Assembly (NCBI RefSeq): GCF_003018255.1
Contig: NZ_CP027440.1
Origin: Escherichia coli
GTDB lineage: Bacteria; Pseudomonadota; Gammaproteobacteria; Enterobacterales; Enterobacteriaceae
Length of the DNA: 64,000 bases
Direction: 5' to 3' (one strand)
This document shows, piece by piece, positions 2,650-51,670 of the stretch (its first letter is position 1; each line of letters opens with the position of its first letter). The notes beneath the pieces are model-generated. The model had not been told where the DNA came from. It worked only from the letters and a program-made list of their open reading frames with translations, and ran no database searches. A program made the position numbers and the translations under genes.

Positions 2650-3363
2650 ATGGATGACAGTGCTCTGCTCAGAAACTCTTCACTTTTTGTTGCTTATATG
2701 GGCTGTCTCGGATGGGGGAGCGCTTATTTCTATGGATGGGGTACTTCATTTTACTATGGCTTTCCATGGTGGGTTGTCGGGGCTGGTGTCGATGATGTAG
2801 CACGAAGTTTGTTTTATGCTGTGACAGTTATTGTTATATTCCTTATTGGATGGGGAGTTGGTATTGTTTTCTTTTTGGGCATAAAACAAAAGCGCAATAT
2901 ACAAAATTTGAGTTTTATCCGGCTTTTTCTCGCGATATTGCTGCTTTTTATTCCACCTGTTCTGGAGTTTTCTGTAATTCATCAGCATGTTGAGCCAGAT
3001 GTACTGATTTTCTGCGTTCTTGCTGCCTTTGCAATCACGCTTTTTGTCAGGTCTGGAAGAAGACTTGTTTCAGTCAAATGTTTTTCGGAAATGTCTGTTA
3101 TTCGCCATCACCGAATTGAGTTCATGATGGCTGGGTTTATGATTTATTTCTGGGCATTCTCTCTTATTGCCGGTTGGTACAAACCACAGTTTAAGAGGGA
3201 ATATCAGGCGGTCCACTATGAGAATGTATGGTATTACATTATTGCGCGCTATGATGATCGTCTGGTGTTATCGAAATCATACAGGAGTGGGGGTAAGAAA
3301 TTCGTTATATTTAATAGCGGAAATATTAATGATTTTGAAATTAATACTGTCAGAGTACGTTAA
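2650..3363 (+). CDS. multi-pass inner-membrane protein, unknown function (moron)
   Basis: 237 aa with about five hydrophobic Trp/Phe/Gly-rich segments followed by a ~60-aa soluble tail. AT-rich relative to neighbours. No family recognised. Confidence 0.6.
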   Translation: MDDSALLRNSSLFVAYMGCLGWGSAYFYGWGTSFYYGFPWWVVGAGVDDVARSLFYAVTVIVIFLIGWGVGIVFFLGIKQKRNIQNLSFIRLFLAILLLFIPPVLEFSVIHQHVEPDVLIFCVLAAFAITLFVRSGRRLVSVKCFSEMSVIRHHRIEFMMAGFMIYFWAFSLIAGWYKPQFKREYQAVHYENVWYYIIARYDDRLVLSKSYRSGGKKFVIFNSGNINDFEINTVRVR

Positions 3364-3536
3364 AATTTCCTGAGTAATAAAGATTTTACTGCCCGGCATT
3401 GAGCGGCTTTTTTATGCCAGAAAAATGGTGCAGTACATAAAATGTGCAGGTGGTTATTAATACCGGTCTTTCAGCTTGCTGGCTTTTTTGACAAGAGTTA
3501 TTGGTGTGTCACGTTAACCGGAAAAGGGAAAAAGAC

Positions 3537-3884: not shown

Positions 3885-4943
3885 ATGTTTAATACTGTAA
3901 AAATATCCAGTTGTGAGTTAATCAACGCTGACTGCCTGGAATTTATCCGGTCGTTACCCGAAAATTCTGTTGACCTGATAGTCACGGACCCGCCGTACTT
4001 TAAAGTGAAGCCTGAGGGCTGGGATAACCAGTGGAAGGGCGACGATGACTACCTGAAGTGGCTGGACCTGTGTCTGGCGCAGTTCTGGCGGGTGCTGAAA
4101 CCTGCCGGAAGTCTTTACCTGTTCTGTGGCCATCGCCTGGCATCTGACATTGAAATCATGATGCGTGAACGCTTCAGTGTGCTGAACCATATTATCTGGG
4201 CAAAGCCGTCCGGACGCTGGAACGGGTGCAACAAGGAAAGCCTGCGGGCGTATTTCCCCGCCACAGAGCGCATTCTGTTCGCGGAACATTATCAGGGGCC
4301 GTATCGCCCGAAAGATGCCGGGTATGAGGCGAAGGGCAGGGCACTGAAACAGCATGTGATGGCCCCGCTGATTTCTTACTTTCGTGATGCGCGTGCTGCC
4401 CTGGGGATAACGGCAAAACAGATAGTGGATGCCACAGGAAAGAAAAACATGGTGTCGCACTGGTTCAGTGCCAGTCAGTGGCAGCTACCGAACGAAAGCG
4501 ATTATCTGAAATTACAGGCGCTGTTTGCCCGGGTGGCAGAAGAGAAGCATCAGCGGGGGGAACTGGAGAAGCCCCACCACCAGCTGCTGGAGACGTATAC
4601 TTCACTGAACCGGCAGTATGCGGAACTGCAGAGTGAATATAAGCATCTGCGGCGGTATTTTGGCGTGACGGCGCAGGTGCCGTACACGGATGTGTGGACG
4701 CATAAACCGGTGCAGTACTATCCCGGGAAACATCCGTGCGAAAAACCGGCAGAAATGCTGCAGCAGATAATCAGCGCGAGCAGTCGTCCGGGTGACCTGG
4801 TTGCAGATTTTTTCATGGGGTCGGGTTCGACAGTCAAAGCCGCGATGGCGCTGGGGCGTCGTGCAACTGGCGTTGAGCTGGAGACTGAACGTTTTGAGCA
4901 GACGGTCAGGGAAGTTCAGGATTTAGTCAGTCAGAACGGATGA
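3885..4943 (+). CDS. orphan DNA N6-adenine/N4-cytosine methyltransferase (beta-class, N6_N4_Mtase type)
   Basis: 352 aa. DPPY catalytic motif near the N-terminus (VTDPPYF) and the AdoMet motif FMGSGST near the C-terminus. No adjacent restriction gene. Confidence 0.9.
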   Translation: MFNTVKISSCELINADCLEFIRSLPENSVDLIVTDPPYFKVKPEGWDNQWKGDDDYLKWLDLCLAQFWRVLKPAGSLYLFCGHRLASDIEIMMRERFSVLNHIIWAKPSGRWNGCNKESLRAYFPATERILFAEHYQGPYRPKDAGYEAKGRALKQHVMAPLISYFRDARAALGITAKQIVDATGKKNMVSHWFSASQWQLPNESDYLKLQALFARVAEEKHQRGELEKPHHQLLETYTSLNRQYAELQSEYKHLRRYFGVTAQVPYTDVWTHKPVQYYPGKHPCEKPAEMLQQIISASSRPGDLVADFFMGSGSTVKAAMALGRRATGVELETERFEQTVREVQDLVSQNG

Positions 4944-5852: not shown

Positions 5853-5906
5853 CAGGGGGAGAAGATTTTCTCCTGTCCTGATGATTTTGGGGCGCTGGAA
5901 AGATAT

Positions 5907-6164
5907 TGTGCTGTGAAGTGTTAAATCCCTCACAATTCAGTAAGTTGACAGTTGCCTGTCAGACTGAGCATTTGTTAAAAAAATTTCGCATGGTGAATCC
6001 CCCTGTGCGGAGGGGCGACTGGTGAACGGTATGATCTCTTTGATGATCGTAAGCGAGAATACGCGGGTTTGGTGTCACCGGGCTGAACTCACCGGGAGGC
6101 ACCCGGCACCATGCTCATGGTGATACAGAAATGCGGCTTCAGCCCCTCTCCGGAGGGGCTTTCT
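5907..6164 (+). ncRNA. solitary copy (unit A) of the ~250-bp structured-RNA unit
   Basis: Same four conserved boxes as the 7885-8904 array. Closing stem 5988-5995 GCATGGTG / 6107-6114 CACCATGC. Terminator GCCCCTC-TCCG-GAGGGGC at 6141-6157. Confidence 0.5.
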
Positions 6165-6170
6165 TATGGA

Positions 6171-6239
6171 CAAAAAAAGCCCGCGCTGGGAGACGCGGGC
6201 GGCAAGGAATAAACAATAAAACGTGAAGTAATACTTCAA
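6171..6239 (-). ncRNA. candidate small RNA, copy 1 (promoter to intrinsic terminator)
   Basis: Minus strand: TTGCGC (6275-6270), 18-bp spacer, TATTAT (6251-6246), then ~69 nt ending in GCCCGCG-TCTCCCAG-CGCGGGC plus U7. Paralogue at 8911-8989. Confidence 0.5.
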
Positions 6240-6320
6240 CTGGCGAATAATACCCGACAGTAATCACTCTGCGCAATAGCGTGGCCTTTTTCGAATTGCG
6301 GGCTGTAGTCTCCCTTCTGC

Positions 6321-6484
6321 CGGGTGTCCTGGTTGCAGATTTCTTCATGGGGTAGGGTTCGGCAGTTAAAGCAGCGATGGTGCTGGGGCGTCGTGCAACT
6401 GGCGTTGAGCTGGATACCGGGCGTTTTGAACAGACTGCGCAGGAAATCAGGGATGTATTTAGCGGGAGCGGTTTGCAGAAGTAA
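6321..6484 (+). pseudogene. 3'-terminal remnant of a second DNA methyltransferase gene
   Basis: Nucleotide-level similarity to 4789-4943 (CCTGGTTGCAGATTT..TTCATGGGGT.GGGTTCG...GGGGCGTCGTGCAACTGGCGTTGAGCTGGA). Has an in-frame TAG (ATG GGG TAG) and lacks the 5' ~900 bp. Confidence 0.8.
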
Positions 6485-6547
6485 TCTCCCAAAATGCCAT
6501 TTTTGGAATATACTGGTATTAAGTCTTTTTGCTCAGGTTAATTCAAA

Positions 6548-7273
6548 ATGGATGTTGCCTGCTCTGTGGTCCTGATTCGCTATCCGATAGATATTTTTCT
6601 TGAAAAAGAAAAAGTTTCACTCGATGCCGGAAGTGTTATGCTTGTTGCCAGAAATATAAGAGGGCTTTTCTGTGCTTATGCCGACAGAGTGAAAATGGCA
6701 GATATAAGTAACAGCGTCGTCAATCAGTATCTGGAAAGGGAGTGTGAACTGACGGAGTATACACCGACAAAAATGCCTCTTTATTTGATGTCTGATATTT
6801 ACAATACGGAACTGGCGGAGGCTTTAATAACCCAGCATAGTGAATCCAGTGATACTTTGAAGGATTTCTCTGTTATAACCGCATTTTCATGTATCTCCTT
6901 ATTTGCAACAGACAGACGTCTGCCATTATTTTTGTCCGGTGCTGTAAATAATATCAGCTGTAAAGTAAGGGCTATAATTCAGACCGACATATCGGCAGGC
7001 TGGATGCTTGGTGTGATTGCATTACAATTGCATATGAGCGAAAGCTTGTTGAAGCGAAAACTTAAGGATGAAGGTTATAGCTTTAGTCGGTTGTTGCTGG
7101 AGGAGCGAATGCGTGTTGCTGTTAATCTTGTATGTTTCCAGCGAGAGTGTGGACAAGCGATAGCGGAAAAATGTGGTTACTCAAGTAAGTCCTACTTCAT
7201 TTCTGTATTTCACCAGTATTATGGTGCACCACCTGAGAGCTATGCATATTTGCAGAAAGCAGACGTTATCTGA
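6548..7273 (+). CDS. AraC/XylS-family transcriptional regulator (prophage Psr/PatE-like)
   Basis: 241 aa. The C-terminal double HTH is typical of AraC (LLKRKLKDEGYSFSRLLLEERMRVAVNLV...IAEKCGYSSKSYFISVFHQYYGAPP). AT-rich moron. Confidence 0.8.
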   Translation: MDVACSVVLIRYPIDIFLEKEKVSLDAGSVMLVARNIRGLFCAYADRVKMADISNSVVNQYLERECELTEYTPTKMPLYLMSDIYNTELAEALITQHSESSDTLKDFSVITAFSCISLFATDRRLPLFLSGAVNNISCKVRAIIQTDISAGWMLGVIALQLHMSESLLKRKLKDEGYSFSRLLLEERMRVAVNLVCFQRECGQAIAEKCGYSSKSYFISVFHQYYGAPPESYAYLQKADVI

Positions 7274-7362
7274 TGTTTTTTCATCAGGCATATATTGATT
7301 GACTGTATTAGATATAGTCTGAATGTGTTCAGCATAAAAAGTTATAATCATTTGGTGTTTGC

Positions 7363-7641
7363 GTGAATATTGATGAGAAAATCAGATGTAGCCAACTGTT
7401 ACAGCGTATTGAAGCCGTCAATGTGGAACGAACAAAGGTCTTCAGTCGTCTGACAGTTTTATTTTGTACCCCTGATCGACGTTCAGGTCAGGAGATGGTT
7501 CTTCTGGATGTAGATGCACTTCGGAACGTCTGTGAGGAGTTCACCGCGGCTAATTCGGAGTTACTGAGTCTTGTTCAGGAGTACAACAGAATTGCAGGTA
7601 GTAACGGTTTTGATGAAATCAAAATTATATCCCGTGGATAA
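7363..7641 (+). CDS. hypothetical protein
   Basis: 92 aa, GTG start. Followed by the CCTGTAT...ATACAGG hairpin plus T-run (7651-7680). No family recognised. Confidence 0.4.
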   Translation: MNIDEKIRCSQLLQRIEAVNVERTKVFSRLTVLFCTPDRRSGQEMVLLDVDALRNVCEEFTAANSELLSLVQEYNRIAGSNGFDEIKIISRG

Positions 7642-7884
7642 AACATATCCTGTATATTTATGTTGTTACATACAGGCGCTTTTAGTATCTGCCGCACGGC
7701 AGTTGTACTTCAGAATAAGATGCTTTTGTGACTGGTGGTGTTGTATCTGGGGTTAGCCAGTAGGCAGGTTCAGAGAGTCCGGTGGTAATTATGTGTATGC
7801 AGTGGTTGTTGCTGTACCGTGGGCAAGTTCTGGAACTGGCTTCGTCCATTGTAGATGATTGTTAGCTGGATATCAGTTACCTCA

Positions 7885-8904
7885 TGGAAATGTTAAATGA
7901 CTCACAATTCGGTTGATGGGCTATTGTCTGATCGATGGAAGTCTTGTAAAAACGAGCCAGCATAGTGAATCCCCCTGTGCGGAGGGGCGTCTGACATGGT
8001 CTCCATAGCGATGGTCACAATACGCAGATTCAGTAGTCAGGCTGAATCTACCGGGAGGCACCCGGCACTATGCTGCTTATGGTGTATACATAGCGATCGG
8101 CCCCTCTCCGGAGGGGCTTTTTTTGTGCGGGAAAAGGCTGTGTTGTTAAGTGTTAAATTCCTCACAGTTCGGATGGTTGATGCTTGCCTGTCTGAGGGGG
8201 AGTTGTTAAAAAAGTTCTGCATGGTGAATCCCCCTGTGCGGAGGGGCGACTGGTGTGATTTGCATCTTTTCTGTTGTAGGCAATGCAAACGCGGGTTCAG
8301 GGACGCCAGACTGGACTCACCGGGAGGCACCCGGCACCATGTTCATGATGATACAGATACGCAGTGTCAGCCCCTCTCCTGAGGGGCTTTTTTATGCAGG
8401 AAAAACGCTGTGTTGTGAAATGTTAAATTCCTCACAGTTCAGATGGTTGATGCTTGCCTGTCTGAGGGGGAGTTGTTAAAAAAGTTCTGCATGGTGAATC
8501 CCCCTGAGCGGAGGGGCATATCAGCGCAGGTGTTTCTACTCTATCCTTTCTGTGCGGGTTCAGGTGCTGATACTGAACTCACCGGGAGGCACCCGGCATC
8601 ATGCATATGGTTAACAGACACGTAGCGAAGCCCCTCTCCGGAGGGGCTTTTTTATGCAGGGAAAAGGCTGTGTTGTGAAATGTTAAATTCCTCACAATTC
8701 ATGAGGTTGATGATTGTCTGATTGATGAGGAGTTTGTTAAAAAAAACGGGCATGGTGAATCCCCCTGTGCGGAGGGGTGATATCGTATCATTTCCTGTGT
8801 GGCCGACTGATATCACGGACATTTGTTCACCGGGAGGCACCCGGCACCATGCAGTATACAGAGATTAGGCATACATCCAGGCTCCTCATCGCAGGAGCCT
8901 TTTT
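7885..8904 (+). repeat. tandem array of four ~240-270-bp structured-RNA units (B 7885-8124, C 8125-8393, D 8394-8653, E 8654-8904)
   Basis: Each unit has box 1 TGTTAAAT.CCTCACA(A/G)TTC, box 2 TTGTTAAAAAA..GCATGGTGAATCCCCCTGTGCGGAGGGGC, box 3 CACCGGGAGGCACCCGGCACCATG, and an intrinsic terminator with a T-run. The ORFs crossing the units differ in frame and length. Confidence 0.85.
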
Positions 8905-8910
8905 ACATGT

Positions 8911-8989
8911 AAAAAAAAACCGCTCCTGGGAAGAGCGGTTGGCAAGGAAGCAAGGAATAAATAACAAAACGTGAAGTAATTTATTCAGC
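8911..8989 (-). ncRNA. candidate small RNA, copy 2 (promoter to intrinsic terminator)
   Basis: Minus strand: TTGCGC (9025-9020), 18-bp spacer, TATTAT (9001-8996), then ~79 nt ending in AACCGCTC-TTCCCAG-GAGCGGTT plus U9. Shares the core TTACTTCACGTTTT.TT.TTTATTCCTTGC with copy 1. Confidence 0.55.
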
Positions 8990-9137
8990 ACCCTAATAAT
9001 ACCTTAGAGTAATCACCTTGCGCAACTGTAAGGGCGTATTTCTTTTTTGCGGGCTGTTTTTCTGTGTGACTTTTGTGTTTCCGGTGGTCAGCCCGTGCCT
9101 TCTCTGACTCAGAACATTATCCCGGCCGGGAGGATTC

Positions 9138-11102
9138 ATGGCATTTAAACACTACGATGTGGTCAGGGCGGCATCGCCGTCAGACCTTGCTGAACGACTG
9201 ACACAAAAACTGAAGGAGGGCTGGCAGCCATTTGGCAGTCCGGTGGCCATCACGCCTTATACCCTGATGCAGGCCATTGCGGCGGAAGGTGATGTCACCA
9301 CACCAGTGGCGGTGACCGGTAATGAGGGTAAGGTGGTGGCTGTCAGTGCCACCAGCGACCCGGAGTATTACTTTGTTGTGGTTCTGGCAGGGCAGTCAAA
9401 TGGCATGTCGTATGGTGAAGGTCTTCCGCTGCCGGAGACATATGACCGTCCGGACCCGCGCATTAAGCAGCTGGCGCGCCGCAGTACGGTGACACCGGGC
9501 GGTGTTGCCTGTAAATATAACGACATCATTCCGGCGGACCATTGTCTGCATGATGTGCAGGACATGAGCCGTCTTAACCATCCGAAAGCGGACCTGTCAA
9601 AGGGGCAGTACGGTACCGTGGGGCAGGGGCTGCATATCGCCAAAAAATTGCTGCCGTTTATACCGGCGAATGCGGGCATTCTGCTGGTTCCGTGCTGTCG
9701 TGGTGGTTCAGCGTTCACCACCGGAGCTGATGGCACATACAGTGACGCGAGTGGTGCCTCGGAGAATTCAACCCGCTGGGGTGTGGACAAGCCGCTGTAT
9801 AAGGACCTTATCGGTCGAACAAAAGCAGCACTGAAGAAGAACCCGAAAAATGTGCTGTTTGCCGTGGTGTGGATGCAGGGGGAATTTGATTTTGGCGGTA
9901 CGCCGGTAAATCACGCAGCACAGTTTGGTGCGCTGGTTGATAAATTCCGTGCAGACCTGGCGGATATGGCAGGCCAGTGCGTCAGTGGCTCTGCTGGCAG
10001 TGTTCCCTGGATATGCGGGGACACGACGTATTTCTGGAAGCAGAAGAACGAATCCACGTACCAGACGGTGTACGGCAGCTATAAAAACAAAACGGAAAAG
10101 AATATCCATTTCGTACCGTTCATGACGGATGAGAACGGGGTGAATGTGCCGACGAACAAACCGGAAGAAGACCCGGACATTCCGGGTATCGGGTATTACG
10201 GTTCGAAATGGCGTGACAGCTCAGCCACCTGGACGTCACAGGACAGGGCGAGCCATTTCAGCACCTGGGCACGCCGGGGGATTATTTCCGACCGTCTGGC
10301 AACGGCGATTCTGGTGCACGCCGGGAGAACCGCTGAATTCATTACCGGAAAACAGCCTGATATGGTGAAGCCCACCGTACCTTCCGGTGAAGGTCCGGAG
10401 AGAGAGGCGGAAGCCCCGGTCAGTAACCGAACCCTGATGAGTCTGCTGGCATCCGGCGAAGACCTGGCATCACAGGGCTGGCGCTATTATCACAAACCGG
10501 CGGGCGGAGACAGTGTTAACAAAAACATTGCTGAAGCGGTGGTCAGTGATGCGGGGGCTACGGGAGGTAAGGCCCTGCAACTGAACAAACCGGAAAACCA
10601 CATCTGGTTTCTGGAGCATGATGCAGCCGGACAGGGTGCGGAGTTACTGAAGAAGGGCGGACGTGTGAGCGTACGGTTTAAGTTGCCGGGTTCACTGGTG
10701 CCGAATCAGTTTGCCCTGGGCATTTACTGGCAGTTGTCGTCCCTGCCGGAGGGGGTGACGCTGTCAGGAGAAGGTAACGATATGCTGATGTCTTTCTTCC
10801 TGCAGACGGATACGACGAACCTGAACGCGATGCATCACAGGAAGCCGAATGCGAAGCTGGATACATTCGGGGTCTTTGATAACGGATGGCACACGCTGGC
10901 TTTTGAGTTTGCCGGAAACAACAGCATTCAGGTGACACCAGTACTGGATGAGAAACGGGGAGCGGCGTTCACACTGGTGAAGTCACCGGCATCGGGGGCG
11001 GCGGACAAACTGCAACTGACCGATATATCAAAATCGGCGACGTATACGCTGCTGATTGACAGCATTGCGGTGGAAGTGAACAGCACAGACACTGCGGCAT
11101 GA
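9138..11102 (+). CDS. NanS-p-type prophage sialate O-acetylesterase (DUF1737 + SASA esterase + C-terminal lectin-like domain)
   Basis: 654 aa. The N-terminus MAFKHYDVV...GWQPFGSP is DUF1737-like. The block VVLAGQSNGMSYG is a GDSL/SASA-type catalytic motif. It sits upstream of the lysis genes, as for nanS-p genes of EHEC lambdoid prophages. Confidence 0.8.
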   Translation: MAFKHYDVVRAASPSDLAERLTQKLKEGWQPFGSPVAITPYTLMQAIAAEGDVTTPVAVTGNEGKVVAVSATSDPEYYFVVVLAGQSNGMSYGEGLPLPETYDRPDPRIKQLARRSTVTPGGVACKYNDIIPADHCLHDVQDMSRLNHPKADLSKGQYGTVGQGLHIAKKLLPFIPANAGILLVPCCRGGSAFTTGADGTYSDASGASENSTRWGVDKPLYKDLIGRTKAALKKNPKNVLFAVVWMQGEFDFGGTPVNHAAQFGALVDKFRADLADMAGQCVSGSAGSVPWICGDTTYFWKQKNESTYQTVYGSYKNKTEKNIHFVPFMTDENGVNVPTNKPEEDPDIPGIGYYGSKWRDSSATWTSQDRASHFSTWARRGIISDRLATAILVHAGRTAEFITGKQPDMVKPTVPSGEGPEREAEAPVSNRTLMSLLASGEDLASQGWRYYHKPAGGDSVNKNIAEAVVSDAGATGGKALQLNKPENHIWFLEHDAAGQGAELLKKGGRVSVRFKLPGSLVPNQFALGIYWQLSSLPEGVTLSGEGNDMLMSFFLQTDTTNLNAMHHRKPNAKLDTFGVFDNGWHTLAFEFAGNNSIQVTPVLDEKRGAAFTLVKSPASGAADKLQLTDISKSATYTLLIDSIAVEVNSTDTAA

Positions 11103-42660: not shown

Positions 42661-42714
42661 AACGATAACTCCGTACATTTGAAAATTATCGCCACCTTCA
42701 GGTTCCAATCATCA

Positions 42715-42791
42715 TGGTGGCGAACTGTGCGGGGTTGGAACTACCGGGTACGGAAACCGGCGAGCCTTTCGGCTCCCCCACACAGCCCGCC
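42715..42791 (-). ncRNA. C4-type antisense RNA (P1/P7 immI-like), 77 nt
   Basis: 16-bp closing stem GGCGGGCUGUGUGGGG/CCCCGCACAGUUCGCC followed by ACCA. Inner hairpins are GAGCC-GAAA-GGCUC and CCGG-UUUCCGUAC-CCGG. Single-stranded AGUUCCAA and the loop are complementary to sites flanking the element on both sides. Confidence 0.65.
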
Positions 42792-42824
42792 ATAAATCGC
42801 GAATGTGACTGTGCAAACGATATG

Positions 42825-42901
42825 AAAAAAGACGCGGGCGCGTCTCATATCGCTCCGTAAACATCCGGGGTTCCAATCCCGACGCCAGATTTTGCTGACG
42901 C
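42825..42901 (-). ncRNA. short terminated leader RNA carrying the a1/b1 decoy sites
   Basis: From the predicted TSS (~42901) to the terminator GACGC-GCCC-GCGUC plus U6 (42846-42825). Contains GAUUGGAACC (42878-42869) and UUACGGAG (42860-42853). Confidence 0.5.
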
Positions 42902-51555: not shown

Positions 51556-51583
51556 AAAAAAAAGCCCGCTCATTAGGCGGGCT
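51556..51583 (-). terminator. trp attenuator (3:4 terminator hairpin)
   Basis: Minus strand: AGCCCGCCTAATGAGCGGGCT followed by U8. Confidence 0.95.
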
Positions 51584-51625
51584 GGGTATCTGATTGCTTT
51601 ACGCATGGTGAATACACTGCCCGTT

Positions 51626-51670
51626 TCAGGAAGTGCGCCACCAACCTTTCAGTACGAAAATTGCTTTCAT
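51626..51670 (-). CDS. trpL: trp operon leader peptide
   Basis: Minus strand ATGAAAGCAATTTTCGTACTGAAAGGTTGGTGGCGCACTTCCTGA = [14 protein letters not shown], with the tandem Trp codons. Confidence 0.97.

Follow-up and report, generated by a model that had tools for sequence, protein, structure and literature searches.

The late region of an Escherichia coli prophage carries two short minus-strand units, each laid out like a complete small RNA (sRNA) gene, and the question they raise is which RNA they encode, where its transcription begins and on what it acts. The window, by which we mean the whole 64,000-nt stretch of DNA that was analysed, is a lambdoid prophage late region whose best match is E. 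coli OkiPb01697, at 100% across the region of the second unit. An earlier note had proposed the two units, here called copy 1 and copy 2, as paralogous sRNA candidates; the features that bear on them are collected in Table 1.

Table 1. Positions in the window of the two minus-strand units and of their neighbours
Feature	Position	Strand	Remarks
Methyltransferase gene, tRNA-Ile, tRNA-Arg, five STnc100 units, AraC-like ORF, nanS-p			Downstream of Q
STnc100 units (RF02076)	5959-6171, 7931-8126, 8190-8399, 8460-8659, 8721-8910	+	Rfam
STnc100 unit convergent with copy 1	5959-6171	+	Rfam RF02076, 172.4 bits
Copy 1 sRNA body, short form	6172-6241	-	Predicted +1 at 6241/6240; EcOnc08/42 type
Copy 1 intrinsic terminator	6172-6200	-	GCCCGCGU/GCGCGGGC stem 6200-6179, U7 6178-6172
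Copy 1 seed CCUUGCC	6201-6207	-	Single-stranded, directly 5' of terminator; unpaired probability 0.98
Copy 1 proximal promoter candidate	6247-6276	-	-35 TTGCGC 6276-6271, 18-nt spacer, -10 TATTAT 6252-6247
STnc100 unit convergent with copy 2	8721-8910	+	RF02076, 141.3 bits; last of four tandem units 7931-8910
Copy 2 sRNA body, short form, 79 nt	8911-8989	-	Other 5' end, duplicated seed, replaced terminator
Copy 2 intrinsic terminator	8911-8940	-	AACCGCUCUU/AGGAGCGGUU stem 8940-8918, then U run
Copy 2 seeds	8941-8955	-	CCUUGC 8955-8950, CCUUGCC 8947-8941
Copy 2 proximal promoter candidate	8996-9025	-	-35 TTGCGC 9025-9020, 18-nt spacer, -10 TATTAT 9001-8996
Distal promoter-like site ATGCCA-17-GATAAT	9116-9144	-	Overlaps nanS-p start codon; promoter scan
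nanS-p (SASA-family carbohydrate esterase)	9138-11102	+	Conserved ORF bounding the sRNA slot

Each copy runs towards a plus-strand RNA of the STnc100 family, and in both cases the 3' end of the sRNA lies 1 nt from the 3' end of STnc100. Four STnc100/PasD-like units (119-141 bits) stand head to tail on the plus strand at 7931-8910 and a fifth lies upstream (5959-6171); the convergent minus-strand sRNA is present only at the first and the last of these five. Copy 2 sits fully in a slot that is antisense to PR' and bounded by an STnc100-type RNA and a nanS-p-type ORF. Copy 1 is likewise convergent with STnc100, and on its other flank, without nanS-p, there is the remnant of a DNA methyltransferase gene just upstream of the copy (6320-6484, plus strand), which the matching RefSeq record gives as a pseudogene. 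Because this remnant takes the place of nanS-p beside copy 1, the arrangement suggests that the unit of STnc100 and sRNA was perhaps duplicated or recombined into this site. Elsewhere in the window, a C4 antisense RNA (RF01695, 78.9 bits) adjoins isrK (RF01394, 72.7 bits) on the minus strand at 42713-42901, which points to a second immunity-like region, of the P1/P7 or P4 type, and a tryptophan operon leader (RF00513, 93.1 bits) was found at 51556-51649 on the minus strand, so that the window reaches into the trp region of the chromosome.

In copy 2 the -35 hexamer, the spacer, the -10 hexamer, the ~79 nt that follow (8989-8911) and the hairpin with its U run are exactly as had been claimed, and a terminator scan also calls this hairpin. 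The promoter and terminator elements claimed for copy 1 are also present, at coordinates shifted by 1 nt from those first given. The body of copy 1 leads from a 5' hairpin (UGAAGU/ACUUCA) through a U-rich linker and the seed into the terminator, and its short RNA folds at -20.9 kcal/mol (z = -4.65 against shuffles), compared with -20.6 kcal/mol (z = -4.78) for that of copy 2. Both short forms fold into a small hairpin or stem at the 5' end, followed by a single-stranded U-rich part and a strong terminator, and they have the traits of the Hfq-dependent class of sRNAs, namely a long U tail behind an intrinsic terminator, U-rich sequence that is single-stranded and a short seed that is accessible. 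The sRNA body contains the stretch CACGUUUUGUUGUUUAUUCCUUGCC. The conserved core was found as the earlier note wrote it: the 27-nt core pattern matches exactly twice in the 64-kb window, both times on the minus strand (6202-6228 and 8950-8976), and 0 matches were expected from 100 shuffles. Taken literally, the statement that no ORF is present does not hold, as there are mechanical 54-aa ORFs, beginning at 6239 and 8991, but a coding role is still unsupported. We rejected a small protein as the product, these ORFs using different frames of the core in each copy, lacking a leader or RBS and crossing the terminators.

Copy 2 has the 27-nt core of the published loci, save for 2 substitutions, but departs from them in other parts. 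Its seed region (8941-8958, minus strand) holds an 8-nt tandem duplication, UUCCUUGC followed directly by UUCCUUGC, which the earlier note had not described and which accounts for the two seeds of this copy. A partition function gave an unpaired probability of 0.45 for the first seed, which is half sequestered by the 5' arm, and of 0.92 for the duplicated seed. The copy 2 type of terminator occurs in another locus (L049) without the seed duplication. Judged by its sequence, copy 2 is a natural variant in which the terminator has been swapped and the seed duplicated.

Both units are copies of a prophage Hfq sRNA that has already been catalogued, and hence a rediscovery, not a new RNA. Tree et al. 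(2014, Mol Cell, PMC4104026, Table S2) listed three Hfq-CRAC peaks in prophages Sp4 and Sp15 of O157 Sakai: EcOnc08 (Sp4, minus strand, 1179938-1180010, found in 5/5 CRAC datasets), EcOnc21 (Sp4, minus strand, 1180016-1180101) and EcOnc42 (Sp15, plus strand, 2924036-2924118). With the shift from old to new Sakai coordinates calibrated by CLASH read sequences (+1 at Sp4 and +135 at Sp15), the EcOnc08 peak falls on the short body (locus L004, 3940-4012), from the U tract through the last base of TATTAT, and the EcOnc21 and EcOnc42 peaks fall on the stretch just upstream of the short body, including the -35. Sp4 and Sp15, the latter being the Stx1 prophage, carry a nearly identical unit with the same location and strand. 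Sy et al. (2020) wrote of EcOnc42 as an sRNA that 'bookends' the 3' side of stx1AB, and a 2021 review gave its target as unknown. In enteropathogenic E. coli (EPEC) E2348/69, Pearl Mizrahi et al. (2021, Sci Adv, PMC8550237, Table S6B) reported the new sRNA E2348C_1409.E2348C_1408.IGR (NC_011601, minus strand, 1444797-1444978) and noted EcOnc08/21/42 as its homologues; in locus L005, from EPEC prophage PP6, this sequence is at 3298-3400 on the minus strand. Through these homologues, the tables of both studies support a genuine minus-strand sRNA locus, Hfq-associated and convergent with STnc100.

The match is closest for copy 1. Its body is 95-100% identical to the Sakai Sp4/Sp15 and EPEC PP6 loci, it aligns to those of Sakai Sp4 and EPEC PP6 with few substitutions, and most of its BLAST matches are at 95-99% identity. 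The likeness to EcOnc08/21/42 (E2348C_1409.E2348C_1408.IGR) covers the sequence (~95% or higher), the promoter hexamers, the seed CCUUGCC, the terminator, the strand and the position between STnc100 and a nanS-p-type ORF. Unlike the published loci, the window has two copies in one prophage, and copy 2 departs from them in its 5' end, in its replaced terminator stem and in its duplicated seed. Rfam searches with gathering thresholds and at E <= 10 returned no family for either copy, the best chance scores being 23.7 bits for RsaOG and ~20 bits for OmrA-B.

Where transcription starts is less clear. The -35 TTGCGC matches TTGACA at only 3/6 positions, and for this reason a consensus promoter scan listed neither proximal promoter. 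The hexamers are nevertheless strongly conserved. Because a script that measured their conservation was anchored on ATTAT and TTG, and so was partly circular, we used a core-anchored list of 41 distinct variants instead, in which TTGCGC is found in 41/41 and TATTAT in 40/41, at a fixed spacing of 18 nt, and the spacer sequence and the flanks vary. The 70-80-nt promoter-to-terminator transcript that had been proposed stands unproven, as the published sizes of the EcOnc08/21/42-type RNA are larger, with a Northern band of ~271 nt for the EcOnc locus (Tree et al., 2014) and an estimate of 182 nt from RNA-seq coverage in EPEC (Pearl Mizrahi et al., 2021, PMC8550237). Moreover, one RNase E-CLASH read contains ATATTATTCGCCAGCTGAAA, so that some RNA includes the -10 hexamer. 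The probe used for the published Northern blot, AATAATATCCGACAGTAATCACTCTGCGCAATAGC, has the reverse-complement sequence of the stretch from the proposed -35 to the -10. The probe result, the 182-nt estimate and the CLASH read together indicate that a longer RNA covers the proposed promoter. This long form of ~180-270 nt, containing promoter sequence, is what the published data show.

It might then be that the only functional transcript is this long RNA, started from a distal promoter at the nanS-p start and ended at the same terminator, so that TTGCGC and TATTAT would merely be transcribed sequence and any short species an RNase-processed 3' fragment. We regard this as a serious possibility, if the lesser one. 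Besides the ~271-nt band seen with a probe on the -35 to -10 stretch, the 182-nt estimate and the read across the -10, it agrees with the Hfq peaks of EcOnc21 and EcOnc42, which lie upstream of the -10, and with the promoter-like ATGCCA-17-GATAAT at 9144-9116. From its sequence this distal site is a candidate start for a ~195-nt long form of copy 2, and at the equivalent site in EPEC the predicted start is ~12 nt from the 5' end estimated by RNA-seq. However, the distal region is wholly missing from copy 1, whose homology stops ~50 nt upstream of its -35, and the EcOnc08 peak stops at the -10. Hexamers that are essentially invariant amid a varying spacer and varying flanks are hard to explain as mere RNA sequence. 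Furthermore, the homologous -35 yields the primary 54-nt AsxR in Sp5: AsxR uses the same -35 and upstream DNA, and its 5' end was mapped as primary (Tree et al., 2014). Finally, because the probe lies on the -35 to -10 stretch, an RNA starting after the -10 would be undetectable, and the absence of a short form from the blot is uninformative. A short form of ~70-80 nt from TTGCGC-18-TATTAT is therefore plausible; both forms may exist, and the proximal promoter may be minor or inactive.

On what the RNA acts is indicated by published RIL-seq data from EPEC (PMC8550237), where the sRNA has 10 interactions and is always the second, sRNA-type partner of the chimera. The partners include the 5'UTRs of cfa (767 chimeras) and dppA (197 chimeras), and further tir, espC, emrA, pcm, a LEE gene and the yagU intergenic region, and MEME found the motif GGCAAGG in the targets (PMC8550237). 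CCUUGCC, found at 6207-6201 (copy 1) and 8947-8941 (copy 2), is exactly complementary to this motif, and this bears out CCUUGC as the likely seed. The speculation that it pairs with Shine-Dalgarno AAGGA sequences fared less well, as the target motif is GGCAAGG instead and the cfa site lies 135 nt upstream of the start codon; a motif-variant site in dppA, GGCAGCG, is 59 nt upstream of its start codon. Whole-length RNAduplex predictions against cfa, dppA and tir were no better than those of shuffled sRNAs, and only local seed duplexes were kept for target pairing: 9 bp at -15.5 kcal/mol for cfa, 7 bp at -13.3 kcal/mol for tir and a weak duplex of -9.4 kcal/mol for dppA. Because the leaders of cfa and dppA are frequent interaction hubs, the chimeras alone are no proof of regulation. 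The RNA might repress its targets or, as other sRNAs of the cfa leader do, stabilise them. The literature on the EcOnc08/21/42-type sRNA yielded no target validated by reporter or compensatory mutation.

Conservation among relatives singles out the seed. A MAFFT alignment took in 15 diverse variants, with distant ones from strain Z247, phage PhiR12_3 and locus L133 among them; the block UUUAUUCCUUGCC, which contains the seed, is their most conserved internal segment, and the seed is predicted to be unpaired in most variants. Only L133 alters the block, to UUUAUUUCUUACC; in this locus (IMG/VR contig 2548876859_000008) the seed UUUCUUACC replaces UUCCUUGCC, and the hairpin and U tail are kept. 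This diverged member may, from its sequence, be a specificity variant. The view that the terminator stem is replaceable while the hairpin is kept is borne out by the variants, which show U-G to C-G and other wobble changes, one compensatory pair (G-C to A-U, in the L038 type) and, in the copy 2 type, a stem wholly replaced. In a fixed register, 90.6% of terminator cells are paired, a count that understates pairing in the two rows of the copy 2 type, which the alignment sets one column off. Two variants have disruptive mismatches in the terminator, among them the copy of the Sakai Sp15 Stx1 phage (L003, 1800-1840), where a C-to-A change leaves a mismatched stem, GCCAGCG..CGCGGGC, with an MFE of -11.7 compared with ~-18 kcal/mol.

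These data bear on whether the units might work mainly in cis, with the convergent promoter/terminator pair insulating or interfering with PR' late transcription into nanS-p or, in another form of the idea, with the RNA acting as antisense to the nanS-p leader and its trans interactions being incidental. The position opposite the late operon and directly upstream of nanS-p, the full complementarity of the long form to the late mRNA leader and the terminators set back-to-back with STnc100 would all fit such a role. Yet copy 1 is not beside nanS-p, conservation peaks in the short single-stranded seed and not over the whole antisense region, and abundant RIL-seq chimeras join the RNA to unlinked genes, so that we consider a main role in cis very improbable. 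We favour, with good confidence, the reading that the units are copies of the known lambdoid/Stx-prophage Hfq sRNA, which acts in trans through a seed that pairs with GGCAAGG, short and long forms both being possible. Its gene occupies the convergent-sRNA slot of a late-region 'moron' site, against PR' and between an STnc100-type RNA and nanS-p. The RNA would be a trans-acting, Hfq-dependent base-pairing sRNA, in which a single-stranded seed, (U)UCCUUGCC, lies just 5' of a GC-rich intrinsic terminator and would pair with the GGCAAGG sites of mRNAs, and the terminator, the U tail and the upstream U-rich stretch would together form the Hfq-binding module. Hfq does crosslink to homologues of the sRNA (Tree et al., 2014, PMC4104026).

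The same slot is used by other RNAs. AsxR (RF02703), AgvB (RF02702) and EcOnc03 have the same position and orientation, convergent with STnc100, and like the EcOnc08/21/42-type RNA they bind Hfq, end in a terminator with a U tail and are preceded by a -35 TTGCGC and ~110 nt of homologous upstream DNA reaching to nanS-p. From the nanS-p start to TTGCGCAG, Sp5 (with AsxR), Sp4 and EPEC are nearly identical, and thereafter they diverge completely. The shared stretch from the -35 to nanS-p lies at 9020-9138 (minus strand) in the window, at 4683-4835 in locus L001 and at 4043-4160 in L004. A promoter-anchored scan of viral contigs showed that this -35 precedes either bodies with the CCUUGCC seed (-10 TATTAT) or AsxR/EcOnc03-type bodies (-10 TAAAAT), besides a few rarer bodies. 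Unlike in the window copies, then, the -10 of the AsxR/AgvB/EcOnc03 RNAs is TAAAAT, and their transcribed body is unrelated. They are 51-60 nt long, their 5' seed being variable and their 3' domain conserved, whereas the window sRNA is variable in its 5' part and has its seed directly against the terminator, and their partners are core sRNAs, whereas those of the CCUUGCC-seed sRNA are mRNAs. The Rfam models of AsxR and AgvB gave no match at E <= 10 over 5900-9150, AsxR in Sakai Sp5 scoring 88.1 bits as a positive control, and the ~42-nt conserved 3' domain of the anti-sRNAs (GUAUCUCAUGC..UUGCCCGAACCCACUCGGGC) was not found, the alignment diverging right after TTGCGCAG. We thus rejected membership of the AsxR/AgvB family, there being no model match and an unrelated body, with the slot, the -35 and the upstream DNA in common.

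A function like that of AsxR and AgvB, as an anti-sRNA or sponge that mainly sequesters a core sRNA, could be suspected from this common slot, -35 and upstream DNA, and also from dppA, which AgvB derepresses via GcvB (Tree et al., 2014) and whose leader the CCUUGCC-seed sRNA contacts too. We give it little credence, as neither family model matches even at E <= 10, the body is unrelated to the 42-nt anti-sRNA domain, and nine of the ten RIL-seq partners are segments of mRNAs, the RNA itself taking the place of the sRNA in the chimera.

A broader proposal, which we consider speculative and on balance rather unlikely, treats the -35 and the ~110 nt to nanS-p as a socket for exchangeable payloads. 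Unrelated payloads, either AsxR/AgvB-type sponges or the CCUUGCC-seed sRNA, would have recombined in exactly at TTGCGCAG, and they may converge on one host circuit, AgvB acting via GcvB on dppA and the CCUUGCC-seed sRNA on the dppA and cfa leaders. The 8-nt seed duplication of copy 2 would then be a recent adaptive step that restored an accessible seed. The -35 region of copy 2 (9016-9025, minus strand) reads GCGCAAGG and resembles the target motif GGCAAGG. In the modelled long RNA of copy 2 this upstream GCGCAAGG pairs with the seed region, in a single MFE structure of low ensemble frequency, and the seed of the long form could thus be masked, making it an auto-inhibited precursor.

Other prophage RNAs were compared as well. 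PasA and PasC of EPEC (EcOnc51/52) are also Hfq-dependent prophage sRNAs of ~80 nt from the minus strand of the same late region, with a seed near the terminator, but they differ in sequence and their place is beyond nanS-p, in the interval from the esterase to the holin; we rejected them on this position and on neither Pas probe target being present in the window. STnc100/PasD/EcOnc27/EcOnc13 shares the intergenic region as the convergent partner and binds Hfq as well, but it is encoded on the opposite strand, is ~200 nt long and highly structured, and has an Rfam family. Esr41 (RF02676) was also rejected, as it maps to SpLE1, a different island, and has no Rfam match in the window.

The apt label for both units is EcOnc08/21/42-type, and all that is new here is that there are two copies, that copy 2 is a variant and that the relation to AsxR/AgvB is made explicit as one of socket and payload. 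Among 5426 complete E. coli genomes, 1108 carry the copy 1 type, in as many as 6 places each and always unannotated, and it also occurs in 55 phage records, mostly of Stx2a and Stx1 phages. Copy 2 is the rarer variant, found in 88 of the 5426 genomes, mostly of non-O157 Shiga toxin-producing strains. About one in five complete E. coli genomes, and Stx1 and Stx2a phages too, thus carry an sRNA that is unannotated and belongs to no Rfam family, and among its RIL-seq partners are tir and espC, which are virulence genes, and cfa and dppA, which are envelope and nutrient genes. Characterising this sRNA would give insight into how Shiga-toxin and related prophages rewire the post-transcriptional control of their host.
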